DNA of 64,000 nucleotides from an uncultured Acidobacteriota bacterium (GCA_963809485.1 CAWEJX010000021.1:50894-114893); one strand, 5' to 3'. Counted from the first letter of the stretch, positions 3,227-34,702 are shown. Notes: a model not told the origin generated them from the sequence alone. Translations and numbers: made by a program.

Positions 3227-5310
3227 CTAGCCCGAGTTTACCACCCGTAGGCGGCAAAATTCCATTTTGATCAGCATTGAAGCCCCTGCAAGCAACATAT
3301 TATGTATGACCTAACTATAATCCATTTATACCTCCACGACGACCGCCTGGCATTGCCGCCAGCCACGCAGTAATATTGTCGCAAAGCACTGAACTATTTC
3401 CTAAGAATATCTTTCTGTAATGCCTAATTTATCAAGACATCCGCATTTCTTTGATACTATATATTGGGCCTTCAGGCAATCTGCACAACAATATCTTGAC
3501 ATCACGAGTAAAATATTGTATGACCTAACCATGGCAAGCTTGACCAAGAAGTTCATCAAGGGAAGGCCCTACTACTACCTGCGGGAGTGCCGCCGTGTGG
3601 GCGGCAAGCCCAAAATCGTCTGGCAGGAATATATCGGCACGCCCCAACAGCTGACCCTGAGGCTCACCAACCCCAGACCCCAGGAAATCATCGTCCGGGA
3701 ATTTGGCGCTTCCGCCGCAACCTTCGATATGGCCCAAAAACTGGAGGTCGTTTCCATTATTGACCGTCACGTCCCCAAGGAGGGGAACCAGGGGCCTTCG
3801 GTCGGCGAGTATCTGCTGGTTGCTTGCCTCAACCGTTGCATGGCGCCCTGCAGCAAGGCGAAAACCGGCGAATGGTATGACAAAACCGTACTTCCCCGCC
3901 TGCTTGGCATCAAGAGTTCCCAGCTTTCCAGCCAGCGCTTCTGGGACAATATGAATCGGGTCAATCAACCGGAAATCGGCAAGATCGAGGCGGATATCTC
4001 CGCAGTCGCGGTATCCCGATTCGGCCTGGACCTGAAATGCCTGCTTTTTGATGCCACCAACTTTTTCACCTTTATCGACAGCTTCAACGATCGGGCGAAA
4101 CTGCCGCAGCGCGGCCATGGTAAAGAAGGGCGGGACAATTTGCGCATTATCGGCTTGGCCCTTTTGGTCACCTCCGACGGCGACGTCCCTCTGTTTCATT
4201 GCACTTACGCGGGCAACCAGCACGACTCGGTGACATTCTCCAGCGTAGCCGAGGATTTGGCTGACCGCTGCCGGAAGCTGTCCGAGGGTGTCTGTGACAT
4301 TACGCTCGTCTTCGACAAGGGGAATAACTCCAAGGAGAACCTGGATGCCGTCAACGCCGGGCCCTACCACTTCGTCGGATCTCTGGTTCCCAGCCAGCAT
4401 CCGCAACTCCTGCGCATCTCTCGAGACGAGATGCATCGATTGGACAAAAGCCTGCTGCCTTCCGTCTGGAGCTACCGAACGCAAAAAGAGGTCTTTGGGA
4501 TCCGGCGTACCGTCTTGGTCACATACAACCGCGAGCTTTACCGGGCACAGGTCAAGACTCTGAGGCGCGAAATCGCAAAACGCCGGCGCAAACTGCAGCA
4601 ACTGCAGCTGTCTCTCCAACGCCATAGCGGTCCGAACTCCCGAGGGAAGAAACCCACGCTGCAGGGAAGCCGCAACCGCGTTCAAAGTATTCTTGCAGGC
4701 CGCCACATGACCCAACTCTTTTCTGCCAAAGTGATCCTGGGCAAGGATCAGATCCCTCGGCTCCGATGGGCTTTCAGAGATCGAGAATGGGATCGATTGG
4801 ATCGAACCCTTCTGGGCAAAACAATCCTGTTCACGGATCGGGAAGAATGGACCGACGAACAGATCGTGTTGGCCTATCGGAGCCAATCTCACGTGGAAGC
4901 AGCATTCCGCCGCATGAAAGATCCCCGGTTCCTTGCCTTCCGTCCCACGCATCATTGGACCGATCAAAAGCTCCGAGTCCATGCTTTTTATTGCGTGCTG
5001 GCTTTAATGATAACGAGCCTGCTATGCCGCAAGCTCGCACAAGCTGGGATCCGCATGAGCATTGCGCGCATGATGGAACGGCTGAAAGACATCAATGAAG
5101 TGGTGAATCTATATCCAACCCCAAAGGGTGCGGAACCGCGCATGCAAGTCGACCTGTCACAACAGGACGCGGAACAAGCCGCCATTCTGAAAGCCCTCGA
5201 TCTGGCTCGGTACGTCTCAAATTAGGTCATACGTTTCGGGATCACTCGCAGCCGCTTCAATACTGATCAAAATGGAATTTTGCCGCCTACAGGTGGTAAA
5301 CTCGGGCTAG
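3227..5310 (+). mobile_element. IS1634-family insertion sequence, apparently intact
   Basis: The 48-bp terminal inverted repeats 3227..3274 and 5263..5310 match at 47 of 48 positions by eye. They enclose a single long transposase ORF. CTAG sits at both outer tips. Confidence 0.8.
3531..5225 (+). CDS. IS1634 family (IS4-like DDE) transposase
   Basis: ORF 3420..5225; likely start MASLTKKFIKGRPYYYLRECRRVGGKPKIVWQEYIG, an N terminus typical of IS1634 transposases. TTGACA-N17-TATGAC lies upstream. Confidence 0.8.
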   Translation: MASLTKKFIKGRPYYYLRECRRVGGKPKIVWQEYIGTPQQLTLRLTNPRPQEIIVREFGASAATFDMAQKLEVVSIIDRHVPKEGNQGPSVGEYLLVACLNRCMAPCSKAKTGEWYDKTVLPRLLGIKSSQLSSQRFWDNMNRVNQPEIGKIEADISAVAVSRFGLDLKCLLFDATNFFTFIDSFNDRAKLPQRGHGKEGRDNLRIIGLALLVTSDGDVPLFHCTYAGNQHDSVTFSSVAEDLADRCRKLSEGVCDITLVFDKGNNSKENLDAVNAGPYHFVGSLVPSQHPQLLRISRDEMHRLDKSLLPSVWSYRTQKEVFGIRRTVLVTYNRELYRAQVKTLRREIAKRRRKLQQLQLSLQRHSGPNSRGKKPTLQGSRNRVQSILAGRHMTQLFSAKVILGKDQIPRLRWAFRDREWDRLDRTLLGKTILFTDREEWTDEQIVLAYRSQSHVEAAFRRMKDPRFLAFRPTHHWTDQKLRVHAFYCVLALMITSLLCRKLAQAGIRMSIARMMERLKDINEVVNLYPTPKGAEPRMQVDLSQQDAEQAAILKALDLARYVSN

Positions 5311-6702: not shown

Positions 6703-9384
6703 TTACTTGACCGGGACCCGTTGCTTCAGTTCTTCAAACCAGTTGAGGACGATGGTGATCCTTGGTCGTACAACTTCCTCCGCAGAGGAGGCAGCCCTAG
6801 GCTGTTTTATCATCAGGAATCGTTTGCCATCCGGATGAATGTCCCAAGGGGTTCCTGTATATAGGCCATAGCCAAGATTCTCGTTCTTAAAAAGCATTTT
6901 GGGAGTCTGGAAGCCGAGGGTAGGCTCGGTTTCCACCACCACTGCCATTATGTGATTATCTTCACTTAAATAAAATAATTGCCGCCCATCCGGCGACCAT
7001 AGCGGGCTGGTCCCGCCTTGAGTGGAGGCCGACCATTTTCCGCCGGTCACATCCGGAAATGGACGCACATAGATCTCATTCCGGCCGGACTCGTTGGATG
7101 TATAGGCTATCCATCGGCTATTAGGTGAGATTTTAGGCTGAGTCTCTCCATACTCTGATTGCAGGAGCGGCTTTTTCCAGTGATCCTTTTCCATTGATAG
7201 CATACTAATATCCAAATTCGTCCACGTGACCACTTCCTGCATCAGCAGGGTTTTTCCGTCGTTTGCCCATGAGAATGGGTGCAACTGCCCGTCGGGTGCA
7301 GAAATGACTTTCTCGGCCTCCCCAGTGCCGTCGGCGGCTTTCAGAAACACGCCGTTGGGACTTGCTCCAGCAGTATCGGCCCAATAGGCAATCCATTTGC
7401 CGTCCGGGCTCCAAATGGGCAACATCTCCCGAGTTTTTTCAAAGGTCAGCTTTGTAAGATTCTTGCGTGCAGTGTCCCAGATCCAAATATCCTCATTAGG
7501 AGTATTCCCGACCGAGACAGCCACCCGCTTCCCATCGGGCGAAATCTTGGGATATGCATAAAAATTCGGCGGTGTTCCGAGGGATTCTTCCTTTCCTTCT
7601 TTATCAACCCATACCAGAGTTCGCCTTCCCGCTGGCCCTGCTCCGGTTCGAGGCGGCGTCGGGATATAAACAAGCGTTCCCGATTCGGAAATGTCGGCAA
7701 AGGATACATCATCAAGCAGAGGAACCGGTTCGCCTGCGACCCCTAGTCTGTCAAGATTAAAGGGAATGGCATAAACAGTGGTGATATCGGGCGGCTGATA
7801 AATGAGGTATCCATTTGGAAGATATTGGACAACCTCGCCCGGCAACAGCTCTTTCTGCCCTCCTGATTTTAGCTGCCGAACCATTATTCTTGGTTTCTGA
7901 AAGCCAACATTATATGCGGTGTACAGCAGCGATTTCCCATCCTGCAAAATTTGCGGAGACACAAGATTATCGGATCCTGTTTTGACAAGTGACTCCGGTG
8001 TCCCACCGCCGGCGGGAATTCGCATAATGCCGTTTGGAATCGCGCCAAATACAATCATGTCATCCGCACCCCAACTCGCGCCTGCCATTCCCACCCCGCC
8101 AACGTCACACAATGAAACCGGAGCGCCCCCATTGATCGATATTTTTTTCAATTGCCGATCATCGACAGAGAAGTATCCGATCCATTTGCCGTCGGGGGAG
8201 AAGAACGGCTGCCTTGTATCTCCCTCGCTTCCGGCAATAGGCCTGGAGGTTAATTCGTTTACCGAACGTAGGAACAGTCCCTTTGATGTACTGTAAACGA
8301 ATTGCATGCCGTCCGGCGACACGGCAAGAGGCCGACCGGTGAGTTGCTGGCCATCCGGCAGTTCGTGGTCGAAACGGATAACCTGCCGTGATTCGGGTGC
8401 TCTCCTGTTCCAGATAACCAATCCCACGAGGATCGATGCAATGGCAACTGCGGCAGCAATTCCTAGCATTGAATGGGATCTTCTCCGCGTTTCTGCCATT
8501 CCTAAGGGCTGTGCGAATACGCCGCTAGGATCAGCCAAAACCTTCTGAGCGTCTATCCGAACGTCTGAGATGTCATGATATCGGTCCCTTAATTCTTTCT
8601 TTAGGCAGCGTTCCAATACTTCCCGCAAACGGCCGTGCAGATTCGCCGGAAGGCTGTTCCACTCCGGTTCTGAACGGATGACTGCTGCAAGAGTGTCGGT
8701 CACATCCTTGCCCGAGAACGCCGCACGTCCTGTCACCATCTCGAACAAAACACAGCCAAACGCCCAGATGTCCGTCCGCTTGTCCACGGACTTCCCTCTG
8801 GCCTGTTCTGGGGACATATAGGCCGCCGTGCCAAGAATTACGCCTTGCATGGTGGCCATGTCGCTCAGCGTAGGGGAATTGGATAGATTCAGCTCCACTT
8901 GTTCCCCAGTAAATGCCTTCGCCAATCCAAAGTCCAACACCTTCACTTTTCCTTCAGGCGTGACTTTGATATTGGCAGGCTTGAGGTCGCGGTGGATCAC
9001 TCCCTTTTCGTGCGCAGCTTCGAGAGCCTCCGCGATCTGCAACGCGAGTTTCAGGGATTCTTCAACGGGGACCGGACCCGCTTTTATCCGATCCGCAAGC
9101 GTATCGCCTTCAACCAATTCAAGGATGAGGAAGTTGGTTCTGCCGGATTCCTCCAAGCCATAGATGGCGGCGATGTTCGGGTGATTCAGGGAGGCAAGGA
9201 GTTTCGCTTCACGCTGGAACCGAGCGACACGGTCGGCGTCCTTGGCAAACTCTTCCGGCAGCACCTTGATCGCCACGTCCCGGCCGAGCCTGCTATCTTT
9301 CGCCCGGTAAACCTCGCCCATGCCGCCTTTGCCGATTTTTTCCACAATGCTGTAGTGCGAAAGGCTTTGACCGATTTCGGGCAT
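6703..9384 (-). CDS. Ser/Thr protein kinase with TM segment and TolB/PD40-like beta-propeller C-terminal region
   Basis: 893 aa. Kinase motifs present: GKGGMGEVYRAKD, HRDLKPANI, DFGLAK, SPEQ. A hydrophobic segment (IAAAVAIASILVGLVIW) is followed by repeated SPDGK/WSPDG propeller motifs. Confidence 0.85.
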   Translation of the reverse strand: MPEIGQSLSHYSIVEKIGKGGMGEVYRAKDSRLGRDVAIKVLPEEFAKDADRVARFQREAKLLASLNHPNIAAIYGLEESGRTNFLILELVEGDTLADRIKAGPVPVEESLKLALQIAEALEAAHEKGVIHRDLKPANIKVTPEGKVKVLDFGLAKAFTGEQVELNLSNSPTLSDMATMQGVILGTAAYMSPEQARGKSVDKRTDIWAFGCVLFEMVTGRAAFSGKDVTDTLAAVIRSEPEWNSLPANLHGRLREVLERCLKKELRDRYHDISDVRIDAQKVLADPSGVFAQPLGMAETRRRSHSMLGIAAAVAIASILVGLVIWNRRAPESRQVIRFDHELPDGQQLTGRPLAVSPDGMQFVYSTSKGLFLRSVNELTSRPIAGSEGDTRQPFFSPDGKWIGYFSVDDRQLKKISINGGAPVSLCDVGGVGMAGASWGADDMIVFGAIPNGIMRIPAGGGTPESLVKTGSDNLVSPQILQDGKSLLYTAYNVGFQKPRIMVRQLKSGGQKELLPGEVVQYLPNGYLIYQPPDITTVYAIPFNLDRLGVAGEPVPLLDDVSFADISESGTLVYIPTPPRTGAGPAGRRTLVWVDKEGKEESLGTPPNFYAYPKISPDGKRVAVSVGNTPNEDIWIWDTARKNLTKLTFEKTREMLPIWSPDGKWIAYWADTAGASPNGVFLKAADGTGEAEKVISAPDGQLHPFSWANDGKTLLMQEVVTWTNLDISMLSMEKDHWKKPLLQSEYGETQPKISPNSRWIAYTSNESGRNEIYVRPFPDVTGGKWSASTQGGTSPLWSPDGRQLFYLSEDNHIMAVVVETEPTLGFQTPKMLFKNENLGYGLYTGTPWDIHPDGKRFLMIKQPRAASSAEEVVRPRITIVLNWFEELKQRVPVK

Positions 9385-9645: not shown

Positions 9646-9942
9646 TCAGTGCTGTCCAAATTGGCCCATTGGAAGCAGAGGGCTCATTGAAAGCATTCAA
9701 CTTGTGGCTCATGAAGTGCCCCTGCAAGGACGAGGTTGGCACCAAGCCCCGGTAGGGGCGGAAAGAAAATAGCCAGGGATGAGCGGAGCGAATCCCTGGT
9801 TCCTATGGCGAAGAAAAGAGCCCTGGGAAGGGCGAAAGACTATATGTTATCACGCCCTTCCAGGGCTCTCCTCTTGCCGATTCTCACCAGGGGTTCGCTC
9901 CGCTCACCCCTGGCTATTTTCTGATCGCCCCTTGCGGGGCTT
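9646..9942 (+). repeat. ~295-nt hairpin-rich repeat, copy 1 (inverted partner at 17843..18137)
   Basis: Nearly identical to the reverse complement of 17843..18137. It contains a 30-bp outer stem (agccagggatgagcggagcgaatccctggt / accaggggttcgctccgctcacccctggct) around an inner imperfect hairpin, then a short GC hairpin. Confidence 0.8.
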
Positions 9943-10308
9943 GCTCAAAAAACCTGTTTCGCGACAGTCCTCCATGCGCCCGGGGCGCACCCAAGTGCAT
10001 GAAAATCGGCTTCGCCGACGCTCAGTTGGGTGAACGAATGGTGTAATTGATCCATCGCGGCCGCTATTTTCGGAGCAGAAACGAGCCAATAGCCGTAAAA
10101 CAGTGGCAGGGTGGACTTTAAACAGTCGTGCTGCATCCGCTGCCGTTTTGTTCCCTTTCAGAATCATTGGCCTAATTTCAGATTGCTGCTGATGGGTCAA
10201 CTTAAATCGTCGTCCACCTACGCGTCCTTCTCGACGCGCAGCCTCCAAACCCGCTTTCGTTCGTTCGCGTAGCATTGCCCGCTCAAATTCTGCAAATGCT
10301 CCAACCAT
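9904..10308 (-). pseudogene. serine recombinase (resolvase/invertase) C-terminal remnant
   Basis: Only the AEFERAMLRERTKAGLEAARREGRVGGRR...HTH (AADAARLFKVHPATVLRLL) part is present, at roughly 10078..10308. The catalytic N-terminal domain is missing, and the ORF tail runs into the adjacent repeat. Confidence 0.6.
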
Positions 10309-10567
10309 CTACATCATCATCCTTCCTGCCGGCGTCGTGGTATCGATCGCCTCCGTCAAACTGCGGAAACCTGCTTGCGCTGGACGAGTGGGAAAAAAGC
10401 GGAAACATATTTTCACAAAATTCCCTCCAGTTGAGGCGCGCAGGACTGAAACGGAAATATGGTGGAAATAGTTTTCCATTTATGAAGGACCTATCCTCAA
10501 CAATTCTGCAATTTAGGCGGGAAATCGGTTTGACCGACATTGAAAACGAAATCAAGGCAGGCGTCGC

Positions 10568-10652
10568 TAGTAAAGAATGCTTTACTTTTATCGCTTATTA
10601 GTAAAGAATCCTTTCCCAGTAAGTCAACCTTAGTAAAGTGACCTTTCCCAGG
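10568..10652 (+). promoter_or_regulatory. three direct ~21-bp repeats upstream of fic (iteron/operator-like)
   Basis: The units are tagtaaagaatgctttac (10568), tagtaaagaatcctttcccag (10599) and tagtaaagtgacctttcccag (10631), spaced 31-32 bp. The array ends 9 nt before the fic ATG, and the last unit overlaps the AGGAGG RBS. Confidence 0.5.
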
Positions 10653-10660
10653 AGGCCATT

Positions 10661-11830
10661 ATGGCAAGAGTCGTCGGGACCTATGAGCAAACCAGCACTG
10701 CGGGTGAAACTGTAAATGCCTTTGTGCCGGCGCCACTTCCTCCAGGCAATCCTCCCCTCGATATGAACGCTGAACTCTCGGGATTATTGCAGTGTGCTGA
10801 AGCGGGTATTTCCAGGTTGAAGGTTGCAGGGTCGATGGTCCCGTCTCTGGATTGGCTTCTCTATTCTTTTGTTCGCAAAGAAGCTGTGGTTTCTTCCCAG
10901 ATAGAGGGTACGCAATCAACCCTGGTGGACTTGCTTATGTACGAAGCCGCCGGGAAGGAAGACGCCATCGACGATGGCGATGTCATACAAGTCCGCAACT
11001 ACGTCGACGCTCTTCATTACGCGCGCAAGCAGATGCGCAGCAAAAATGGACTGCCATTGTCCATACGACTCCTCAATGAGGCTCATCGGCGTTTACTGAA
11101 GAACGTTCCCGGTACCGATAGGGCTCCGGGAGAAATCAGGCGGAGCCAGAACTGGCTCGGCGGGACTCGTCCTGGCAATGCAGTATTCGTACCCCCGCCC
11201 CCCTATTTGTTGGGCGGTTTACTCGGCTCTCTGGGAAAATATATCCACGGTGAAGATTCCCTGCATCCATTGGTTAGAGCAGGGCTGTCGCATGTACAAT
11301 TCGAAACGATACATCCTTATCTGGATGGGAACGGCCGCATCGGCAGGCTCCTGATTACATTGCTCCTGGAGCATTGGAGGATTTTGGATTCCCCCCTGCT
11401 CTATTTGAGTCTTTATTTCAAACGCCACCGTGCCGAGTATTACCGCCGGCTGGATGCCGTTCGGACCGATGGTGATTTTGAAGGCTGGGTGAAGTATTTC
11501 CTGGAAGGAGTGGCCGTCATCGCCGACGAAACCGTACTGACAACACAGAAGCTTTTTACCCGGATCGGTGCAGACCGGACCAAAGTACTTTCGGGTGGCT
11601 CTACCTCTGTGGCCGGCATTCGTCTGTTTGAGCTATTGCCCGCTCATCCGATTATCACCGTGGCCGGAGCTGTAAAGTTGCTGGGGACGACAAAGCCAAC
11701 TGCTACCAAAGCCGTAACAGGGCTCGTTGACGCTGGGGTCCTGGTTGAAACGACCGGCCGCCGTCGGGATCGCGCTTTCAGCTACGAGGATTATCTAAAC
11801 CTTCTGCGCGCCGAAACGGAACCGCTTTAA
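10661..11830 (+). CDS. Fic family protein (AMPylase-type Fic/DOC domain with C-terminal wHTH)
   Basis: Fic motif HPYLDGNGRIGRLL, an N-terminal inhibitory-type motif SSQIEGT, and a strong RBS. Confidence 0.9.
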   Translation: MARVVGTYEQTSTAGETVNAFVPAPLPPGNPPLDMNAELSGLLQCAEAGISRLKVAGSMVPSLDWLLYSFVRKEAVVSSQIEGTQSTLVDLLMYEAAGKEDAIDDGDVIQVRNYVDALHYARKQMRSKNGLPLSIRLLNEAHRRLLKNVPGTDRAPGEIRRSQNWLGGTRPGNAVFVPPPPYLLGGLLGSLGKYIHGEDSLHPLVRAGLSHVQFETIHPYLDGNGRIGRLLITLLLEHWRILDSPLLYLSLYFKRHRAEYYRRLDAVRTDGDFEGWVKYFLEGVAVIADETVLTTQKLFTRIGADRTKVLSGGSTSVAGIRLFELLPAHPIITVAGAVKLLGTTKPTATKAVTGLVDAGVLVETTGRRRDRAFSYEDYLNLLRAETEPL

Positions 11831-11890
11831 AGGCGAGTTCCAATGCAGGAATAAAAGCACACATTCCTGCCGCGCTTCCCCACGGGTCCT

Positions 11891-12334
11891 TTGATCCAAT
11901 TTGGAAGTACTCATTCAACTTCCGCTAATGTTACTGAAATCAGCAAACCCGATCTCATCACGATGAAAATATGCGCCTGGCGGGAAGCTGACAAAGAAGA
12001 TATCGAGGCGCTCGGAATTTCCAAGGAGGATCTGACGATTATCAATGCCAACCTGGCGCATGTCGAAAAACATAGCTCCGACCGGGCGCATAAAGCGCAC
12101 CTTGTTCTATCTGAACTGGGTGTCCAGGAATTGATAATTTTGAAGGCCGACGAAGTAATAAGCCTTGCCGAATTGATTCAGTACTATCGTCAGCATAAAA
12201 AGAAAGAAGCTTCCATTGAAGAAATTCGCAATTGGAAACAGGAAATCGAAAAAGGGATTAAGCCCTCTTCCTTAGCTCAATCCATTTTTGAAGGCAAACA
12301 AAAAGAGGATTCTTCAATTTATGGAGAAATTTAG
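11891..12334 (+). CDS. hypothetical protein (possibly a nucleotidyltransferase-like fragment)
   Basis: TTG-started 147-aa ORF. The segment DLITMKICAWREADKEDIEAL weakly recalls the C-terminal parts of MNT/AbiEii-type nucleotidyltransferases. Its stop lies 1 nt before the next ATG. Confidence 0.35.
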   Translation: MIQFGSTHSTSANVTEISKPDLITMKICAWREADKEDIEALGISKEDLTIINANLAHVEKHSSDRAHKAHLVLSELGVQELIILKADEVISLAELIQYYRQHKKKEASIEEIRNWKQEIEKGIKPSSLAQSIFEGKQKEDSSIYGEI

Positions 12335-12335
12335 C

Positions 12336-13043
12336 ATGAACAGCGAACCCTTATTTTCAATGTGGGCAAGGCTTGGGGTGAACTTCCCTGCCTTTAAGCC
12401 GACCAAAGAGGAACCGCTTGTCGAGGACCTCATTGCTCAGACATCGCTCATCGGGAGATATGAGCCCCGCCTCATCGAAGGTATGGCCGGATGGCTGCAG
12501 AAACATGGGGATTTGGTTAACACCTCTCTTATGCGGAGGCATATTGAGATCGGCGATTCCGCCGTGATCGGTTTGGTGTTCGATGCTATAACCGGTAAAG
12601 AGACCGCCAAGCTGAAGCAGCTTACAAAATATTGCCGCCCCAAAAAGAAAGCAGAAATGCTTTTCTTTGCGACGGAATCGTCCCCGACGATGAAAGCGCA
12701 GGCTGTCGAGCACGAAACCGAAATTAACCGGAAATGGAATCTGCTTTATGTGAGTTTGCGAGTTAAGACGGATGCTGTTTTCGACCGCAAAGTGGTTCTG
12801 AAGAGAAATCCAAACCTTGCCCGCAGATCTCTATTCGGAGTCGTAATGCGTACGGAGATCCTGAATTTTCTACTACAGAAAGGATCAAGTTTTCCGGCGG
12901 AAATATCAAAGGCACTGGGCTATCGATATCACAGGGTTATTTCCGACCCGTTTCGCGCAGAACACGCCTCCACATGTCCAGAGAGAATACCCCCATGGTC
13001 CAGTGATCGGTCTCAATCCGAAGGCGTCCGTGTTCGCGAATGA
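12336..13043 (+). CDS. hypothetical protein, possible wHTH near the C terminus; 3' end overlaps a convergent gene
   Basis: Starts MNSEPLFSMW one nt after the upstream stop. The last ~35 codons are antisense to methyltransferase 12937..13638, which suggests the native 3' end has been replaced. Confidence 0.4.
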   Translation: MNSEPLFSMWARLGVNFPAFKPTKEEPLVEDLIAQTSLIGRYEPRLIEGMAGWLQKHGDLVNTSLMRRHIEIGDSAVIGLVFDAITGKETAKLKQLTKYCRPKKKAEMLFFATESSPTMKAQAVEHETEINRKWNLLYVSLRVKTDAVFDRKVVLKRNPNLARRSLFGVVMRTEILNFLLQKGSSFPAEISKALGYRYHRVISDPFRAEHASTCPERIPPWSSDRSQSEGVRVRE

Positions 13044-13638
13044 GATACAGGATCGTCGTTTCGTACTGCTCATCCGTGGGGTCGGGGTCATACACGTTCT
13101 CGATGAAGACAACGTCCACTCCCTCCCGCGTGGCCGGGGTGGTGCTGGTCTTGTTTTGCTGGAACGTCTCGGTCGTCACGTCCGGAGTAGCAACCAGGAT
13201 GCCGCCAGGGTTCAGATGGGCGTGTGCGGTGCGGAACGCTGCCACAAAGTCTGTCCGGCACCTCATGTGTGAGATCGCGTCGTCCATGAGCACGGCATCA
13301 AAAGTCCTGCCGAGTCTGCACGTCCGCATATCGTCCTGGACAAACGTGCACTCGGGATTCAGTTCCTTCGCCTGCGCAAGCATGGCGGCACTTAGATCGA
13401 CACCGGTGACGTTGAACTGCCGCTTCAGGTTCAGGACGGTCTTCCCGCCCCCGCACCCTATGTCCAGCAATGTGGTTGCCGGGCGCCTGGCGTGCTGACG
13501 GATCAGACCCGTGACGTGTTGGCAGTAGTGCGCGTATTCAGTGGCGGCATTGCCCCACATAGGCCAAAGCCACGCCAAGTCCGTATAGAGCCGGCAGGTA
13601 TCTTGCATCTCTCTTCTCATGCCGAACGCCTGAGTCAT
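12937..13638 (-). CDS. class I SAM-dependent methyltransferase
   Basis: ORF 12937..13773. The plausible start is MTQAFGMRRE at 13638, because the upstream part of the ORF is repeat sequence. SAM motif LLDIGCGGG. Confidence 0.75.
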   Translation of the reverse strand: MTQAFGMRREMQDTCRLYTDLAWLWPMWGNAATEYAHYCQHVTGLIRQHARRPATTLLDIGCGGGKTVLNLKRQFNVTGVDLSAAMLAQAKELNPECTFVQDDMRTCRLGRTFDAVLMDDAISHMRCRTDFVAAFRTAHAHLNPGGILVATPDVTTETFQQNKTSTTPATREGVDVVFIENVYDPDPTDEQYETTILYLIREHGRLRIETDHWTMGVFSLDMWRRVLRETGRK

Positions 13639-13641
13639 GTG

Positions 13642-13831
13642 CCTCCGGCAAAGCCGAAAGCTTGAAAGATTTGAACCGCTCAAAGCGGTTGGACTAGTTA
13701 CGCCGGTCTTGAACGCTGACTTACGCCGACCCTCGCCCAACAAATCGGCGTTTGTCAGCGCTTTTATCAGCATTTCTCAGCGTTTCAAAACACGAAGCTG
13801 TCAAACTCTTTTGAGTCCCCCGGCAGAGCCG
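13642..13831 (+). repeat. ~200-bp multi-hairpin repeat family, copy A (short form, 10-nt internal deletion)
   Basis: Shares the following with the copies at 29958, 39156, 44499, 45707 (reverse) and 58143 (reverse): cctccggcaaagccg..ggaaccgctcaaagcggttgga..gaacgctgac..cgccgaacaaatcggcg..tgtcagcgcttttatcagcgtttctcagcgttt..ctgtcaaactctttgagtcccccggcagagccg. Confidence 0.85.
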
Positions 13832-13859
13832 TGGACGATCCGCCGGATGCGCCGACGCA

Positions 13860-14606
13860 TCACCGCGGCATCAGCGCGAACACACCCCAGCCCAGGTATT
13901 CACGCGTGTAAGCGGCGTAGCGCTCGGGTTCCGAGGTCAGTTTGGCTCGAACATCTTTCGCGAACTCGTCGCCGGGGTTGGCTTCAAGCCATCGGCGCAT
14001 GGTGAGCCATTTGGCCGCCTCGTATCTGTCCCAGCCGTCCTGGTCAGCCAAAACCATTTCAACGACGTCGTAGCCAAGGCGGCCGAAAGACGCGAGAAGC
14101 TCCGGAAGCATGAGATAGTCGGAGATTGAGTTGGCAAGACATCCCTTGGCAACCTCTTCCGTCGGCGGTAACTGCCGCCAGTAGGGCTCGCCGATGAGGA
14201 TGATCCCTCCTGGGCGCAGGCTCCGCGCCAGAAGCTCGATAGTGCCGGCGACTCCACCGGCGATCCAGGTGGCACCGACACAGGCTGCCACACTGACCTT
14301 CTCGTCAGAGACATAGCCGGCAGCATCGCCATGGATGAACTTGACTTGATCGGCGACGCCGAGTTCTACAGCACGGAGTTTCGCTTGCTCGGTGTACAAC
14401 TGGCTCATGTCGATGCCTGTGCCGATGACGCCGTGATCGCGTGCCCAGGTGCACAGCATCTCCCCCGAACCGCTGCCGAGGTCGAGCACTCGGGCTCCCG
14501 ATTCCAGACGCAGCGCCGCGCCGAGAGTGGCGAGCTTTTCGGGTGTGATCGGGTTGTGGATGCGGTGAGCACTCTCAGTGATGTTGAATATCCGCGGGAT
14601 GTCCAT
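13860..14606 (-). CDS. class I SAM-dependent methyltransferase
   Basis: ORF 13860..14720. The start MDIPRIFNI at 14606 has a GGAG RBS. SAM motif VLDLGSGSGE. Confidence 0.8.
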   Translation of the reverse strand: MDIPRIFNITESAHRIHNPITPEKLATLGAALRLESGARVLDLGSGSGEMLCTWARDHGVIGTGIDMSQLYTEQAKLRAVELGVADQVKFIHGDAAGYVSDEKVSVAACVGATWIAGGVAGTIELLARSLRPGGIILIGEPYWRQLPPTEEVAKGCLANSISDYLMLPELLASFGRLGYDVVEMVLADQDGWDRYEAAKWLTMRRWLEANPGDEFAKDVRAKLTSEPERYAAYTREYLGWGVFALMPR

Positions 14607-14642
14607 TGTGAAAAATCTCCTTACGGGTGTGAATAGATCCGG

Positions 14643-14697
14643 CCAGGTCCTAACCTGGATTATACAGAACTTGAGAAATAATTCGCTAGGTGAATAG
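14643..14697 (-). promoter_or_regulatory. conserved promoter/leader block, copy A (shared with 19183..19237)
   Basis: About 45 of 60 ungapped positions are identical (by eye) to the region upstream of the cupin gene. The block contains a TATAAT (complement of 14659..14664) and the small palindrome ccaggttaggacctgg. Confidence 0.5.
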
Positions 14698-15015
14698 CGC
14701 TGGTGTACCAGGAATCCCAATTGCCTGGATAGCCATTAATATTTGAATCACGCTCAACGATCTCAGCCACTGAAAGACCTCAAATAGGAGTAAAATGTTT
14801 TTGGTAATCCTCAAAGGCAGGGGGATCCGTGAAGTGAGTCACTATCGTTATCCAATCATCGAAGCTGAAGGCGAGCGCATGCGGAAGGCGTTCACCTATA
14901 GCAATTGGCACTTCAGGATCTGTTTGGCGTTGATGATCATTGGAGTATTTTGCATTATATCTTCTCATTCTCGGGCAGGTCTATTGTTCATGGCCGTATC
15001 GGTCTGCATCTATCT

Positions 15016-15645
15016 TTATCCCTTCCAGTGGAAGAATGCTTTGAAGAAGCCTTTGGGGAAATAGAGCTGGGGGGGCACGAATTCTACCCTGGAGTATCCG
15101 ATGTGCCCCATGCAAATTAGTTTTTTCAGCATTGGTGAGATCTCTGCAAACCACAGAGGCACGCCGTTGGAATCCAGTTCGATGCGAACGGTGTCCCCGC
15201 CCACCGCCGCCGTGTAGTAAGGATCCTGATCCATGATCGGACGAGTTGAGTCCAGCCTGGCGTGCGTGATAAGGACGTGATCCGTCTCAAACACAGCCGG
15301 CAGTTGTTCCAGGAAGCATGCCCAATGATCCCAGTCCTCCTTCGGCAGCAACGAGAGAGTTTGTTCCCGGCTCCAGGCCGGCTTGCTGGTGCCGCGAATT
15401 GTCCCGGCGACTCGCCGTTCATGATTTCCGAGCGCGCTGAAAGCATTTGGCAAATCGCGAAAGAAGGCAGCCGCTTTCCAGGAATCTGGGCCACGATCGA
15501 GAAAGTCCCCGACCGTGACTAATGCATCTCGCGCCCCAAAGTTGACAAGATGGCATAGTTCCTGGAACTCCACGTAGCAGCCGTGGATGTCTCCAACAAC
15601 AATCGCACGGTCAAATCCGCCGCATGCATGGCTATACGATTTCAT
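15016..15645 (-). CDS. metallophosphoesterase (PPP-family Ser/Thr phosphatase / ApaH-like)
   Basis: Motifs VVGDIHGC, GDFLDRGPDS and GNHE are present. It lies 43 bp downstream of the ATPase gene on the same strand. Confidence 0.8.
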   Translation of the reverse strand: MKSYSHACGGFDRAIVVGDIHGCYVEFQELCHLVNFGARDALVTVGDFLDRGPDSWKAAAFFRDLPNAFSALGNHERRVAGTIRGTSKPAWSREQTLSLLPKEDWDHWACFLEQLPAVFETDHVLITHARLDSTRPIMDQDPYYTAAVGGDTVRIELDSNGVPLWFAEISPMLKKLICMGHIGYSRVEFVPPQLYFPKGFFKAFFHWKG

Positions 15646-15688
15646 GAACTGAAATTAGTCCCATTTCCAAAAAGCAGAACGAAATCAA

Positions 15689-17020
15689 CTATTCGCTATA
15701 GACAAGAGAAGTAGGTGCGGAGAGCAAAAACTCCTCTAAGGTGACTCCGGTTACTTGCTTTGACCTGAACGGCGATCTGCAAATGACCGTTAGGTGGTCG
15801 CGCGGAAAAATCCTGGAAAACCAGCTGAAGTCCATTGGACTGGCTTTCCCCCTTTTGACTTCAATGAAATCTCTATCAGGAGTTACAAAATCAATCTCGT
15901 GCTCCTTCGAAGCCCAGAAACCTATTGCTTCCGGATTAGACCTCCCTCCAAGGACGCATCGTCGCCATATTTCCTGCGCCACCAGCCATTCCATAAAAAC
16001 TCCTTGTATGTCCGGTAAAAGGTCTTCGAATTCGTGAACATACCTCAGAGAGGACGGGTGAAACGCGATGGCAACTGCCAGGTTGATGAAATTGAACTTG
16101 CAGGGCTTCCGCATAAGTACGGTTCTCTTGTTGGTATCAATCGGCCATGAGGGCATGACCGATAAAAGATCGGAGAGCTGTTCGATGTATCCACTGGCTA
16201 CCGTGTTGTTGGCAAGCCCCCCATCGCGGGCGAGTTTCGCAAATCCGACGGTGTTACCGCCGTTGTTCATGATGACGTGCAACAACCGGATTAAAGACAG
16301 CCTTTTTCTTCCGGATGAAACGACTTCTCCCAAAACCCAGTCGCGCACGATCTGGATAAAATATTCAGGAAGCCGCTCAAATTGACATATGTCATTGCAG
16401 GCAACCGGGGAACCTCCGGTCAGCAGATATGCGATCCAGGATTTCTCTCCATGAATCTCTTGAGCATTCAAATTGAATTCCCTATAGGAGATTGGAAGGA
16501 AAATATATTCATTCTTTGACAATTTTCCTTTCCTGCCGGGAAGCTTCTCCGAGCCGTGGCGAAGATCGGACGCCGTTGAACCGGTCGTGATGATGAGGAC
16601 ATCCCTAAAAAGTCCCCGGTCGATCACCCGCTTTACGGCTTTTTCCCAGGCCGGTACGGCCGTTATCTCATCGATAAATAGTCGCTTGATTCCGACGTCT
16701 CTGGAATAGGAGGCATACAGGTTGGTCAATTCCAGATCCAGTTCATCCGCAGAGGCAATTTCGTCGCCATTTAAATAATAGGAAGAACCTTTCCCGAATT
16801 CCTCTGCCGACTGTCGCAGGTTCATGTCGAGCCACGTGCTCTTGCCGTATTGGCGTGGTCCACGGATGATGATAAGCCCCGGTTCTGTCGGAAGTTCGTT
16901 CAGCCCGAATTCGAAACGAAACTGATGAGCTTTGGATTCCAATTCAATGATCCGAGGCCACATGTCATCGCGATCGATGTTTCCTTGCGCCAGCAGCTGA
17001 TTGATTGTCTTAACGTCCAT
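15689..17020 (-). CDS. AAA-family ATPase with DUF4143-like C-terminal domain
   Basis: 443 aa with Walker A GPRQYGKST and Walker B-like LFIDEIT. The C-terminal HEIDFV...IEVKRGK segment is typical of AAA_14/DUF4143 proteins (from memory). Confidence 0.75.
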   Translation of the reverse strand: MDVKTINQLLAQGNIDRDDMWPRIIELESKAHQFRFEFGLNELPTEPGLIIIRGPRQYGKSTWLDMNLRQSAEEFGKGSSYYLNGDEIASADELDLELTNLYASYSRDVGIKRLFIDEITAVPAWEKAVKRVIDRGLFRDVLIITTGSTASDLRHGSEKLPGRKGKLSKNEYIFLPISYREFNLNAQEIHGEKSWIAYLLTGGSPVACNDICQFERLPEYFIQIVRDWVLGEVVSSGRKRLSLIRLLHVIMNNGGNTVGFAKLARDGGLANNTVASGYIEQLSDLLSVMPSWPIDTNKRTVLMRKPCKFNFINLAVAIAFHPSSLRYVHEFEDLLPDIQGVFMEWLVAQEIWRRCVLGGRSNPEAIGFWASKEHEIDFVTPDRDFIEVKRGKASPMDFSWFSRIFPRDHLTVICRSPFRSKQVTGVTLEEFLLSAPTSLVYSE

Positions 17021-17034
17021 AGCGTTAATATACC

Positions 17035-17051
17035 TAACGTTTCAAACGTTA
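17035..17051 (-). promoter_or_regulatory. palindromic operator-like site upstream of the ATPase gene
   Basis: taacgtttcaaacgtta lies 15 nt upstream of the ATG. The same palindrome is conserved upstream of the deleted paralog at 23138..23154. Confidence 0.45.
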
Positions 17052-17073
17052 GCAACTGGATATCCTTTTAGCC

Positions 17074-17655
17074 GTGCTTCATCGTATTTTTATCGTTTTC
17101 CGTTTCCCGAGGGCGGATCAGATTATCGGGATCAACATTCACGGTTTTTTCTCGAGCGTCCCGGAAGATCCTGATCTTTATTCAATGCGGTGCGACGGTT
17201 TGAGCACTCCGAGCGAAGTGATGAACTACGCGCCGCGCCCCGAGCAGCTTTCGACGCGCGACGAGGCCATCAAGGCGGCGCTGCATTATCCGGCTGGACT
17301 CAACGCCGCGAAGACTTTCGCCGACGTGAAGGCGCCCTTTACTGCGGATGCCTATCGTTACGAAAACGGCCAGGCGATGGCAGGTCCCGACTGCAAGTTC
17401 GCCCCCGGCTGCCAGAACATCTCGACGCAATCGCTCGCGATCTTCAATCGCCTCGGTGAGGTGCAAACGCGCGTCATCGCCGTCGATGAGCGCATGGGCA
17501 TCGTCTGGCTGCGCATGGCTTGGGGCGTGCGCGAGCGCGGCGGTGACCAGCTCATAGTGTGGGAGACATTCAAGCTCTACGACGGCAAAATCCACGCTGT
17601 GGAGGCGTTCATGAGAATACTGCCGGTGGACAAGCGCAACGGAGGGTGGGAGTAG
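17074..17655 (+). CDS. hypothetical protein, NTF2-like C terminus; possibly a 5'-truncated fragment
   Basis: GTG-started ORF. It is visibly more GC-rich than its neighbours. The C-terminal part (IVWLRMAWGV...LIVWETFKLYDGKIHAVEAF) looks NTF2/SnoaL-like. Confidence 0.35.
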   Translation: MLHRIFIVFRFPRADQIIGINIHGFFSSVPEDPDLYSMRCDGLSTPSEVMNYAPRPEQLSTRDEAIKAALHYPAGLNAAKTFADVKAPFTADAYRYENGQAMAGPDCKFAPGCQNISTQSLAIFNRLGEVQTRVIAVDERMGIVWLRMAWGVRERGGDQLIVWETFKLYDGKIHAVEAFMRILPVDKRNGGWE

Positions 17656-17842
17656 CAGTAATTTCTCAGATCGGGGGAGTTACTGGAATTTCATGTCTCC
17701 GGAAGTTCGGCTGTATGTCCAAGTGAAAACATCATTCTTATGTCCCGGGACGCCTCTCGGCAGTGTTATAATTTGCGCATGGATTCTCCAAATCTCAAGG
17801 CATATAAGAACTCACTCTTGTCCAAATTAGCTTTCGATTTCT

Positions 17843-18137
17843 AAGGGCCGGAGGCCCGGCAGATAACAGCCAGGGGTGAGCGCAGCGAACCCCTGGTAGG
17901 AATTGGCAATAGAAAGAGCCCTGGAATGCGTGATAGGATATAGTCTTTCGCCCTTCCCAGGGCTCTTTTCTTCGCCATAGGAACCAGGGATTCGCTCCGC
18001 TCATCCCTGGCTATTCTCTTTCCGCCCCTACCGGGGCTTGGTGCCAACCTCGTCCTTGCAGGGGCACTTCATGAGCCACAAGTTGAATGCTTTCAATGAG
18101 CCCTCTGTTTCCAATGGGCCAATTTGGACAGCACTGA
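17843..18137 (-). repeat. ~295-nt hairpin-rich repeat, copy 2 (inverted relative to 9646..9942)
   Basis: The reverse complement matches copy 1 with only 2 differences over roughly the first 195 nt (by eye). The 3' hairpin arm is more diverged, and the element ends in a different short GC hairpin (gggcctccggccc). Confidence 0.8.
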
Positions 18138-18817: not shown

Positions 18818-19162
18818 TTACTCTTGCCTGACTATATCGACCGAGATCTCCACTGCCGGAATCGTCCCTCTGTTCTCAAGCCAGTGTGTGGTGTTCCTAT
18901 CCTCGGGCCAGCCCACGCCCAGCCCATAGTCCGTAGCGACTCCATTCCGATGGTCAGTGATCGTTCCTTGCAGTATGTAGACGGTGCCTGGTCTGTCTTT
19001 ATGGTCGTGAATCGGGCCGAAGACGCCTCCAGGTTCGATGGTCACCATACGCATTCGAAGTTGGCGCCCTGCCATGCCCTCGATCTCAGGGCCAAGGTCA
19101 ACCGCTGCAAGTAGCTTCACCGTAAGACCTTTCGTCTCCGGTGCCACCTGTTCGTTGCTCAT
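18818..19162 (-). CDS. cupin domain protein
   Basis: ORF 18818..19318. The start MSNEQVAPE at 19162 has an AGGAGAG RBS. Cupin-like motif: GGVFGPIHDHKDRPGTVYILQG. Confidence 0.7.
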   Translation of the reverse strand: MSNEQVAPETKGLTVKLLAAVDLGPEIEGMAGRQLRMRMVTIEPGGVFGPIHDHKDRPGTVYILQGTITDHRNGVATDYGLGVGWPEDRNTTHWLENRGTIPAVEISVDIVRQE

Positions 19163-19182
19163 CGCGCTCTCCTCTCTGTACT

Positions 19183-19237
19183 TCCAGGGCCTAACTGAAA
19201 TTATACAGAACCTGCAAAATAATACGCTGGGTGAACA
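19183..19237 (-). promoter_or_regulatory. conserved promoter/leader block, copy B (shared with 14643..14697)
   Basis: Same block as upstream of methyltransferase 13860..14606. TATAAT is the complement of 19200..19205. Confidence 0.5.
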
Positions 19238-19625
19238 GTGGCAACGCGCACGCTTAACCCCGCGCCCGGTCCACGGCAAATCAATCCAGAGTTTTAGATC
19301 CCCCTCCCCATCGGCCATCAGTCATTGTCATCTTCCGGTTGTGGCATTGCCGGCAGAGTGCCTGCCAGTTGGATTGATCCCAGAAGAGATATGAATCGCG
19401 GCGGTCTTGATCGCTTCCTTGAGGGAAGCATTCAGCCGCGAGGTGTCGCCGGAGATTTCGAAAAAGAGGCGTCCGATTGGCATTTAGAAGTTTCTCAACA
19501 TTGGTATTATGGCATTTTCTTTATTGAAATCGCTGAATCCGCCTCTAGAATTTGCGTTAGCACACAAGGTCGAACGTGGGAACCGTAATTCGATGGTCTA
19601 ACCACATTTCCAGGAGTGCACCGCC

Positions 19626-22905: not shown

Positions 22906-23137
22906 GCACAAGTATTTCAGTGGTTCGAAGGTGGAGGAGTGCCTCCAGATCCGCTCTCGATGGTTTTCGATCATGGCAGGCCGGCGGCCAGTTCCGAACG
23001 TATCGGGACGCGCAATGAGAGCGTGTCGTTGTCACCCTCGATCCAGTCGCCGGCGCCTCCCTCGCTGTCGGATCTGATCACCGCCTTTGCGCATTACAAC
23101 CAGTCCTTGCCTTAATTTTATAGGGCTATCCCGCTGC

Positions 23138-23154
23138 TAACGTTTTAAACGTTA
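23138..23154 (+). promoter_or_regulatory. palindromic operator-like site (paralog of 17035..17051)
   Basis: taacgttttaaacgtta lies 14 nt upstream of ATG 23169. The flanking gctaacg...tatattaacgctATGGACGTTAAGACAAT is conserved with the intact ATPase gene. Confidence 0.45.
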
Positions 23155-23168
23155 ACTATATTAACGCT

Positions 23169-23655
23169 ATGGACGTTAAGACAATAAATCACCTCCTGGC
23201 CGGTTGAGAGTAATAAGAAAACCCTCCTCATGCGGAAGCCCTGCAAGTTCCATTTCATCAACCTGGCAGCGGCCATCGCCTTTCATCCATCATCGCTGAA
23301 ATATGTTCACAGGTTCGAAAGTCTTTCACTGGGCATACAAGGAGTTTTCATGGAATGGCTGGTGGCTCAGGAAATCTGGCGGCGAAGGGTCCTCGGAGGG
23401 AGTTCAAATCCCGAAGCGTTAGGTTGCTGGGGCTCGAAGGAGCACGAAATTGATTTTGTAACTCCCGATAAAGACTTCATTGAAATTAAAAGAGGAAAGG
23501 CCGGCCCTATCGACCTCGGTTGGTTTTCCAAGGTTTTCCCGCGCGACCATTTAACGGTAATTTGCAGCTCCCCGTTCACGTCCAGGCAGGGGATCCGAGT
23601 CCCAATGGAGCAATTTTTGCTTTCTGCGCCTACTTCACTGGAATATAGCGAATAA
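23169..23655 (+). pseudogene. internally deleted paralog of the DUF4143 ATPase gene
   Basis: MDVKTINHLLAG then a stop. Homology resumes out of frame at ...NKKTLLMRKPCKFHF and runs to the same C terminus (SAPTSLEYSE) as 15689..17020. About 280 codons are missing. Confidence 0.75.
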
Positions 23656-29906: not shown

Positions 29907-29957
29907 AATTTCGCTCCAGCAAACACCCGCAGTATCGCGGGAATATGGAGTCAGGTA

Positions 29958-30350
29958 CCTCCGGCAAAGCCGGAGACTTGAAAGATTGGAACCGCTCAAA
30001 GCGGTTGGACTAGTTACGCCGGTCTTGAACGCTGACTTACGCGGGCAAAAGCCGATGAGGCGCCTCCGATCCCCGCAGGGGCCAGCGCTCCGCGCTGGAC
30101 AGTTTTCTGCGGCGGCACTGTGGCAAGCGCCGTGCGGCAAGGAGATGAAGGGTATGAGAAACCGGGCGTTTGCCACAGTGCCGCCGCAGAAAACTCCATC
30201 GGAAGCGCCTCATCGGCTTTTGCTCGCCGACCTTCGCCGAACAAATCGGCATTTGTCAGCGCTTTTATCAGCGTTTCTCAGCGTTTCAAAATACGGAGCT
30301 GTCAAACCCTTTGAGTCCCCCGGCAGAGCCGGAGGTTTACCAATGTAATT
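29958..30350 (+). repeat. ~200-bp repeat family, copy B (long form with ~175-bp nested palindromic insert)
   Basis: Same ends as copy A. The insert at 30046..30230 has 25-bp outer and 31-bp inner inverted arms. The copy ends in gtttaccaatgtaattattggtaaac. Confidence 0.85.
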
Positions 30351-34673: not shown

Positions 34674-34702
34674 AAAGCCTGGAAGCAAAGGGGAATCGAG
34701 AA

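Follow-up and report, generated by a model that had tools for sequence, protein, structure and literature searches.

Accessory genes enclosed by two inverted copies of a small element recall two kinds of described system. In composite transposons, a cargo is bounded by two MITEs or insertion sequences, as is reportedly the case of the MITE-flanked integrons of Acinetobacter and of the integron mobilisation units. In the Hin/Gin/Cin/Pin systems, a serine invertase flips a segment between crossover sites of about 26 bp. The repeats themselves can be compared with two types of small element. Known bacterial MITEs, such as Correia/NEMIS in Neisseria, RUP in Streptococcus pneumoniae and Nezha in cyanobacteria, are short and non-coding, have terminal inverted repeats, a fixed-length target-site duplication and strong internal secondary structure, occur as many scattered intergenic copies and receive nested insertions (PMC3733652). 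The REP, REPIN and BIME sequences are mobilised by RAYT tyrosine transposases and, in the case of the GTAG type, consist of a tag next to a palindrome (PMC3116915, PMC3733652).

The window analysed here, a stretch of 64,000 nucleotides from an uncultured Acidobacteriota bacterium, has two inverted repeats that face each other at 9646-18137 with about 8 kb of genes and gene fragments between them. A previous interpretation, made from the sequence only, proposed either a unit resembling a composite transposon or an invertible segment once under the control of an invertase. Neither proposal agrees with the results below. It is likely that the arms are separate MITE copies lying in a variable, defence-island-like stretch, and that the 7.9 kb between them was built piecemeal and neither moves nor flips as a unit.

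The inverted repeats and their family

The inverted repeat pair is real and far above chance: its arms (9646-9923 and 17860-18137, 278 nt each) are 92% identical without gaps and 94.6% identical with one gap (92-95% overall), the BLAST comparison of one arm with the other gives an E-value of 1e-121, and the longest identical run is 91 nt. The sequence-only reading, which had described repeats of about 295 nt with their 5' parts outward, was right in this respect. Each copy contains a near-perfect hairpin of about 200 nt (predicted minimum free energy of -187 kcal/mol, z-score of -13.5), whose arms in copy 1 (9743-9831 and 9855-9943) are 80% complementary.

Both repeats belong, as separate copies, to a non-coding MITE family of about 324 bp, which is scattered in Acidobacteriota genomes. 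The family element is bounded by CAGTGCTGTCCAAATTGG...AATTTGGACAAGAGTG, with ends CAGTG...GAGTG and imperfect terminal inverted repeats of about 18 nt, which match at 14 of 18 positions (CAGTGCTGTCCAAATTGG versus CACTCTTGTCCAAATTAG). Complete copies measure 314-325 bp, or 438 bp where a nested insert is present, and are crossed only by chance ORFs of 60-70 amino acids. The Acidobacteriota MAG CAYYTC01 holds at least six further copies on six different contigs, five of which are near-identical (87-97%) and one a variant (80-82%); these six and the two copies in the window are lower bounds. The copies of this related MAG are solitary (one per 8-kb stretch examined) and lie in unrelated intergenic contexts with duplications of their own: perfect 9-bp target-site duplications flank four of the six (ATGAAAAAT, ATATTCAAT, ATGCCGCCG and ATTTTTTGT), and a fifth copy has one that matches at 7 of 9 positions. 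The copy of locus L083, which carries a nested insertion, has no target-site duplication.

The element is therefore short and non-coding, has terminal inverted repeats and a fixed 9-bp duplication, and occurs in dispersed copies, like the bacterial MITEs mentioned above. It differs from typical ones by its interior, which consists of REP-like hairpins in an inverted doublet and not of a deleted transposase gene. Its insertion generates the 9-bp duplication, and it is presumably mobilised in trans by a DDE transposase; CAG-type ends with duplications of 8-10 bp resemble those of the ISAs1 family in ISfinder, and an ISAs1-like element is a candidate partner. No autonomous partner with matching ends was found in about 1.5 Mb of compared loci or in viral contigs, and the MITE had no match in the plasmid collection searched. 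The IS1634-family element that the window also holds (3227-5310) was ruled out as a partner, its 66-nt ends being unrelated. A literature search returned no description of this family in Acidobacteriota. With its defined ends and 9-bp duplication, the present family could aid the annotation of repeat-rich Acidobacteriota genomes and explain contig breaks.

The two copies in the window are not equally preserved. Their outer 5' ends are both intact, with the terminal sequence CAGTGCTGTCCAAATTGGCC, and are identical over 20 nt. Copy 2 is of full length, which makes it longer than previously thought, and its 20-nt termini (17812-17831 and 18118-18137) are 80% complementary. Copy 1 leaves the family consensus after position 9921 or so: it is truncated or altered at its 3' side, where it lacks the terminal 50 nt or so including the 3' inverted repeat, meaning that its inner end is missing. 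Copy 2 is flanked by TATCAGAAT and AGTTCTTAT, with no target-site duplication. The outer flanks of the pair on the + strand, TTTGCAGGT (before 9647) and ATTCTGATA (after 18136), have no common duplication of either 9 bp or 7 bp, as the sequence-only reading had already noticed. Since neither copy has a duplication, the borders of the MITEs must have been rearranged in some way; if this happened after insertion, it would explain why copy 1 has lost its inner end and why copy 2 lacks a duplication.

Genes and gene fragments between the arms

The inventory of genes between the arms (Table 1) is the one given by the sequence-only reading, whose description of a mosaic accessory segment made of intact and broken modules also holds: the modules vary in GC content between 0.43 and 0.62, four of the genes can be shown to be broken, and the fic cassette has sharp homology borders. 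In composition, the segment as a whole does not stand out from the remainder of the window. The tetranucleotide analysis that had been proposed as a check gives z-scores of -0.7 to +0.7 for it, with no island signature, and the sole outlier within the window is the 33-39 kb region. A scan of the segment for promoters and terminators gave no more hits than shuffled sequence did.

Table 1. Features of the segment and its two arms (window coordinates)
Feature	Position	Strand	Remarks
MITE copy 1	9647-9943	+	5' end intact (CAGTGCTGTCCAAATTGG); 5' part of ~97 nt, palindrome of ~200 nt
Spacer between MITE copy 1 and invertase-homologous DNA	9944-10080		137 nt; 99% identical in L213
Pin-like serine invertase remnant	~10081-10380	-	Residues 83-182 of 186; 88% identity to P0264
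Cassette junction	10381-10390		Invertase homology stops; window-L213 identity falls from 99-100% to ~85%
fic leader	10560-10660	+	Three direct repeats of ~30 nt (10567-10658), type TAGTAAAG...CTTT(A/C)C
fic, intact	10661-11830	+	Fic_N, Fic and C-terminal HTH-like region
DUF6036-like ORF	11891-12334	+	491-nt deletion at ~11939 relative to a 179-aa gene in L213
Hypothetical ORF overlapping the DUF6036-like ORF	12288-13043	+	L213 homology ends at ~12946
Class-I SAM methyltransferase 1	12937-13773	-	Start probably near 13638
Dispersed repeat of a second family, ~208 nt	13633-13831	+	At least six copies in the window
Class-I SAM methyltransferase 2	13860-14720	-	Probable start 14606
Calcineurin-like metallophosphoesterase	15016-15645	-	Weak ApaH/PrpE-like matches
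AAA_14 + DUF4143 ATPase	15689-17020	-	Matches PADLOC candidate family PDC-S01
GC-rich (0.62) 5'-truncated gene	17190-17655	+	Only C-terminal ~150 aa present, family length ~300 aa; 3' end intact
MITE copy 2	17813-18136	-	Full length, 324 nt; both terminal inverted repeats

A contig of a second genome, L213, is collinear with positions 9676-12946 in the same orientation, and homology is lost at the latter position. The two sequences are 99-100% identical up to about 10385, including the junction between copy 1 and the invertase remnant, and about 85-90% identical beyond. The drop in identity coincides with the break of the invertase gene (about 10380-10385). Such a sharp switch inside the segment indicates a history that proceeded cassette by cassette and not block by block.

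In the invertase remnant, residues 1-82 with the catalytic serine are missing, and an in-frame stop (10309-10311) takes the place of Q106. The sequence-only reading correctly described a serine recombinase without its catalytic domain; it is not accurate that this remnant abuts copy 1, from which the spacer separates it. The presence of a Pin-like invertase sequence 137 nt inside copy 1, close to an inverted repeat, would suit the reading that the locus is the relic of a Hin/Gin-type switch, in which the recombinase, now truncated, once flipped the segment via sites within the repeats. Unlike in the Hin/Gin/Cin/Pin segments, however, the invertase has no catalytic domain. The arms, too, are not short crossover sites but 278-nt copies of a transposable element with the hallmarks of transposition. 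Moreover, the point where the invertase is broken lies towards fic, at the cassette junction, and not at the repeat, and such invertases are very common: 3913 homologs are found at E ≤ 1e-5, and among the 120 that were listed many bear the name of Pin-like invertases. Such genes often occur in mobile and defence regions. It is thus extremely improbable that the segment was ever such a switch.

The product of fic matches the SoFic model of PADLOC with an E-value of 1e-106 over positions 5-359 of 361, and scores 146.7 bits against the NCBIfam equivalog, the cut-off of which is 550. Homology to the fic loci of other Acidobacteriota covers exactly 10560-11829, with 86% identity at the DNA level, and fic is kept together with its repeat-bearing leader as a recurring cassette. 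The neighbours of this cassette differ between genomes (AbiEi/AbiEii, HepT, HNH or type III restriction-modification genes), and those seen in the window are absent around it elsewhere. The leader repeats are probably an operator array, and this conserved three-repeat leader, which accompanies fic, is a testable candidate operator for autoregulation.

The genes downstream of fic show further traces of remodelling. The DUF6036-like ORF is shortened by comparison with L213, and the second of the two overlapping ORFs has, as proposed earlier, a replaced 3' end: its last 100 nt or so differ from the L213 gene and reach into the 3' end of methyltransferase 1, which is convergent with it. The ORF of this methyltransferase runs, in its 5' part, into the 208-nt repeat. 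A 55-nt repeat at methyltransferase 2 (14643-14697) also occurs upstream of a cupin gene (19184-19238). The ATPase has a paralog with an internal deletion, in inverted orientation, at 23124-23654. The ORF that holds the GC-rich gene fragment spans 17074-17655 in full.

Does the segment move or invert as a unit?

The geometry of the locus would suit a MITE-bounded composite transposon, in which a transposase acting at the outer 5' ends once moved, or can still move, the entire 8.5 kb, defence genes included. Two inverted copies of a small element do surround accessory or defence-type genes; the same terminal sequence is intact at both outer ends, which the inverted arrangement makes equivalent. 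Unlike composite transposons, the pair has no flanking duplication, one of the copies is incomplete and the interior is a mosaic, uneven in GC content and in divergence from L213, with the switch from 100% to 85% identity inside the block. In addition, fic is found elsewhere without the MITEs or the neighbours that it has here, and every other family copy seen is solitary. The same bounded unit was not found at another locus or in another genome, among close relatives that are sparsely covered: L213 corresponds to the left part only, with mosaic identity. It is therefore very unlikely that the block has moved, or can move, as a composite transposon.

A different possibility is that the 9.9-17.8 kb segment inverts now and then by RecA-dependent recombination between the 278-nt arms, which would give two isomers, with or without a phenotype. 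The identity of the arms makes this possible in principle, as a perfect run of 91 nt is long enough for RecA-mediated homologous recombination. If a simple inversion had separated the halves of the original duplications, the sequence that flanks copy 1 on its 5' side would recur on the 3' side of copy 2; the two flanks are in fact different (TTTGCAGGT versus AGTTCTTAT), although this negative result is a weak test given that copy 1 has lost its inner end. L213, which is about 10% diverged inside the segment, is oriented as the window is at the junction with copy 1, and there is no gene or promoter layout suggestive of a switch. Occasional inversion therefore appears unlikely.

More generally, we see little chance that the inverted MITE pair still works, be it through a transposase or through recombination between the arms, so as to move or flip a defence cassette made of SoFic, the PDC-S01-like ATPase with its phosphoesterase, and the methyltransferases. 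If it did, the locus would be an Acidobacteriota defence island that is bounded by MITEs and able to move or invert.

The reading that we favour, separate MITE copies around an interior assembled piecemeal, would involve the following steps. A stretch of the host Acidobacteriota chromosome rich in small repeats and insertion sequences would have received the two MITE copies by independent insertions. The 7.9 kb between them would arise by insertion, deletion and allele replacement of single cassettes: SoFic with its own leader, the truncated DUF6036 pair, the two methyltransferases, the ATPase-phosphoesterase pair, and the remnants of the invertase and of other genes. The independence of the two MITE insertions cannot be proved, because searches of metagenome contigs and protein look-ups found no empty site and no close relative of the whole region. 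In a scan of metagenome contigs with the hydrolase, the best relatives are 67% identical and have no synteny, and the closest relatives of the kinase (85% and 78% at the amino acid level) have only the kinase gene in common with the window. Exact-protein look-ups returned no match for Fic, the ATPase, the 127-amino-acid protein and the cupin, and one 4-kb Logan contig for the hydrolase. The 8-kb segment itself is of little consequence, other than as an example of a defence-island-like region that is rebuilt cassette by cassette while MITEs gather at its edges.

REP-like hairpins and the Acido-Lenti-1 motif

The inverted doublet inside the MITE is that of a three-hairpin REP-like module, with three different hairpins per arm. 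The middle hairpin consists of [AG]TAG followed by CCAGGG-TGAGCGGAGCGAA-CCCTGG, the ATAG/GTAG tag being 5' of the stem. Its 21-nt core was found in more than 118 stretches across many phyla, most of them with a GTAG tag, and the variable stem positions form Watson-Crick pairs in 113 of 129 matches, counted over 118 stretches. The tag and palindrome have the form seen in GTAG-type REPs (PMC3116915, PMC3733652). Elsewhere, the 21-nt core belongs to classical GTAG REPs, often arranged as inverted doublets, and the 89-nt arms of the MITE are a REPIN-like inverted doublet too. The movement of RAYT-type elements, by IS200/IS605-type HUH transposition, should yield neither terminal inverted repeats nor duplications. 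The whole MITE bears terminal inverted repeats and a 9-bp duplication, unlike REPs and REPINs, which does not fit a RAYT-type insertion of the element as a whole. The inner palindrome with its REP (GGGRTGAGCGGAGCGAAYCCC) may be a captured REPIN.

Rfam searches at gathering thresholds and a tRNA scan found nothing. All eight MITE copies tested match Acido-Lenti-1 (RF01687) at the same position of the element, with scores of 27.0-30.3 bits that all lie below the gathering score of 37 bits. The microRNA and snoRNA matches returned by the permissive Rfam search were dismissed as generic matches to long hairpins, far below thresholds. The Acido-Lenti-1 match spans the REP hairpin of the right arm, CTAT, a linker and the GGGCCTCCGGCCC hairpin. 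The seed sequences of Acido-Lenti-1 agree with the MITE in phylum and in this layout, namely a hairpin, CUAC/CUAU, a linker and another hairpin (Weinberg et al. 2010, PMC2864571). Here, unlike in a free-standing sRNA gene, the motif lies within a transposable repeat, and some candidate sRNA motifs may thus be pieces of mobile repeats.

The inverted repeats and their family

The inverted repeat pair first seen from the sequence is borne out: its arms of 278 nt are 92% identical without gaps and 94.6% with one gap (E 1e-121), and their longest common perfect run is 91 nt. Each copy has a 5′ part of ~97 nt followed by a near-perfect palindrome of ~200 nt, each arm of which contains three small hairpins (GCCCCGGTAGGGGC, CCAGGGATGAGCGGAGCGAATCCCTGG and GCCCTGGGAAGGGC). 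The folding energy of the repeat is ~−185 kcal/mol on both strands (z ~−14). Neither Rfam at curated thresholds nor a tRNA scan gave a match in the repeat region.

The core of the middle hairpin, GGGRTGAGCGGAGCGAAYCCC (21 nt), was the query for a scan of a genome collection, which returned more than 118 stretches at the least. Among those listed, six (a lower bound) contain the whole element, on six contigs of the Acidobacteriota MAG CAYYTC01, with one copy in each 8-kb stretch and 80–97% identity to the window copies. The alignment defines the ends of the family (CAGTGCTGTCCAAATTGG ... AATTTGGACAAGAGTG) and shows imperfect terminal inverted repeats; complete copies measure 314–325 bp, so the size of ~295 nt proposed earlier is too short. 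Perfect 9-bp direct repeats surround four of the six CAYYTC01 copies (ATGAAAAAT, ATATTCAAT, ATGCCGCCG and ATTTTTTGT), the fifth has a flanking repeat with 7/9 matches, and the sixth, in stretch L083, has no flanking duplication and contains a nested insert of ~115–130 nt. All lie in intergenic settings unrelated to one another. Shared ends, terminal inverted repeats, 9-bp duplications and dispersed copies are the defining features of a miniature inverted-repeat transposable element (MITE), to which the repeats therefore correspond. In the window, copy 2 is a complete element, and copy 1 diverges from the family past ~9921; its final ~50 nt, and with them the 3′ inverted repeat, are missing.

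Target duplications of 9 bp are indicative of a DDE transposase working in trans. No autonomous partner was found among the loci compared or in viral contigs, and the IS1634-family element of the window was ruled out because its ends are unrelated. This insertion sequence is apparently intact, with a 601-aa transposase (NCBIfam, 283 bits) and terminal inverted repeats of 66 nt which are 92% identical to each other. The insert in the L083 copy (~7033–7160 of that stretch) is bounded by terminal inverted repeats distinct from those of the MITE (TACGGGGCGTCATAA... / ...TTATGACGCTACGTA) and is probably a second, tiny MITE family.

Features of the segment and its surroundings, in window coordinates
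Feature	Position	Strand	Remark
Inverted repeat arms	9646-9923 / 17860-18137		
MITE copy 1	9647-~9943		
MITE copy 2	17813-18136	-	
Palindrome arms, copy 1	9743-9831 / 9855-9943		80% complementary
21-nt core GGGRTGAGCGGAGCGAAYCCC	9782-9802		and three other arms
Acido-Lenti-1 sub-threshold match	17844-17874	-	also in CAYYTC01 stretches L077, L033, L086, L081, L083, L094
IS1634-family element	3227-5310		transposase 3420-5225
Ser/Thr kinase	6703-9384		left of copy 1
Invertase remnant	~10081-10380	-	
fic leader repeats	10567-10658		
fic	10661-11830		
GC-rich ORF	17074-17655		GC 0.62
ATPase paralog	23124-23654		inverted
55-nt repeat	14643-14697; 19184-19238		
~208-nt repeat copies	13633-13831; 29949-30055 + 30226-30331; 39147-39354; 44490-44696; 45708-45793; 58144-58312		
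Compositional outlier	33000-39000		GC ~0.60

REP-like hairpins and Acido-Lenti-1

In the 118 stretches listed, the 21-nt core is mostly that of classical GTAG-tagged REPs (GTAGGTTGGGGTGAGCGGAGCGAACCCCAAC), often in inverted doublets; such REPs and their connection to RAYT transposases have been described (PMC3733652). Among the taxa with listed matches are Proteobacteria, Planctomycetota, Verrucomicrobiota, Actinomycetota and Methanomicrobiales. Co-variation is seen in the variable stem pair, which is Watson–Crick in 113 of the 129 matches in these stretches, and the phyla share one loop sequence. The three-hairpin module also occurs, differently arranged, in other Acidobacteriota and in Planctomycetota.

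In a permissive Rfam search, every MITE copy matches Acido-Lenti-1 (RF01687) at the same place with 27–30 bits, below the gathering score of 37. The MITE has the same layout as the Acido-Lenti-1 seeds, hairpin–CUAC–linker–hairpin (PMC2864571). When reverse-complemented, the published seeds resemble pairs of GTAG-tagged REPs, so this candidate sRNA may be part of mobile repeats and not a free-standing RNA gene. A REPIN-like doublet would have been incorporated into a transposon with terminal repeats, which would then have been amplified.

Modules between the repeats

The sequence-only reading described the ~7.9 kb between the copies as a mosaic accessory segment, and this is supported by module GC contents of 0.43 to 0.62, by broken genes and by a fic cassette which has other neighbours elsewhere. 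Every item in its list of inner genes was recovered, with one correction: the invertase remnant does lack the catalytic domain, but 137 nt separate it from copy 1. It corresponds to residues 83–182 of a 186-aa Pin-like invertase (88% identity), with a stop codon at the position of Q106; residues 1–82, with the catalytic serine, are missing. That the segment was an invertase switch, of which this is the relic, is extremely improbable.

L213, a 3.9-kb ENA contig from another genome, is collinear with 9676–12946 in the same orientation and stops within copy 1. Identity between the two is 99–100% over the stretch that begins in the MITE and ends at ~10385, and 78–94% (~85%) past there. This switch (~10381–10385) lies within ~5 bases of where the invertase remnant breaks off on its 5′ side, and it marks a recombination junction. 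At position 11939, L213 carries 491 nt extra, and its DUF6036 gene is intact with 179 aa, which indicates that the 147-aa ORF of the window is a deletion derivative. Homology to L213 ends at 12946, hence the 251-aa ORF has had its 3′ end replaced.

The intact fic gene has a match to SoFic among the PADLOC models (E 1e-106). Many metagenome contigs of Acidobacteriota encode relatives with 90–92% protein identity; the genes beside these are for AbiEi/AbiEii, HepT, a second Fic, HNH or type III restriction-modification. The DNA homology of other fic loci covers exactly 10560–11829, from the leader through the stop codon, so leader and fic form a discrete cassette. The 100-nt leader has three ~30-nt direct repeats immediately upstream of the start codon, each with a TAGTAAAG...CTTT(A/C)C half-palindrome, which are kept together with fic in at least 10 other contigs. 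These repeats may be an operator array on which the HTH-like C-terminus of Fic would act.

Both methyltransferases are class-I SAM enzymes; between their genes lies one member of a ~208-nt repeat family. The ATPase (AAA_14 + DUF4143), which matches the PADLOC candidate family PDC-S01, is followed by a metallophosphoesterase. The GC-rich ORF aligns, from residue ~38 on, with the C-terminal half of ~300-aa homologs, and is thus truncated at its 5′ side. Outside the segment, an ATPase paralog is internally deleted: matches to 15690–16152 (81%) and 16989–17065 (88%) are fused directly.

Origin of the pair and surroundings

As already noted from the sequence, there is no target-site duplication around the pair, which makes an old composite-transposon event very unlikely. 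Copy 2 taken by itself lacks a duplication too, as its two flanks differ (TATCAGAAT / AGTTCTTAT). Sporadic RecA-mediated inversion between the arms is also unlikely: the signature expected of simple inversion, identity of the copy 1 5′ flank with the copy 2 3′ flank, was looked for and is absent, although the loss of the inner end of copy 1 makes this a weak test. With the MITE family dispersed, the data do not bear out the earlier proposal of a composite transposon or of an invertible segment. No empty site or close whole-region relative was found by a metagenome-contig hydrolase scan, among kinase relatives or by exact-protein look-ups.

The 64 kb contain ~9 small-repeat copies and one insertion sequence, so that two family members 8 kb apart are unremarkable. 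The mosaic identity profile with L213 and the independent fic contexts show cassette-wise turnover. This turnover, the lack of a duplication around the pair and the lack of an inversion signature favour what is probably the best explanation: two MITE copies would have inserted into a variable defence-type region, and their borders would have been rearranged later.

With z between −0.7 and +0.7, the segment as a whole does not stand out in a tetranucleotide analysis, suggested earlier as a check. Foreign or special DNA is more plausibly represented by the sole clear compositional outlier of the window, at 33–39 kb (tetranucleotide deviation z ~3). The kinase, which has a TolB/Tricorn-like propeller, has relatives 78–85% identical (L199–L203) whose flanks are unrelated to the window on both sides; this family is highly paralogous, or has itself moved among contexts.

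The ~208-nt repeats are 84–95% identical between copies, are bounded by GC-rich hairpins and enclose three short repeats of the CGCTGA type; an insert of ~170 nt interrupts one copy. They usually lie directly 5′ of a gene in constant relative orientation (two such genes encode class-I SAM methyltransferases), which suggests a mobile repeat bearing a leader or promoter. Methyltransferase 2 and a cupin gene (18818–19318) each have a copy of the 55-nt repeat (80% identity) immediately upstream. The minus strand of this repeat has TATAAT and a small hairpin (CCAGGTTAGGACCTGG), and it may be a promoter or leader in common.
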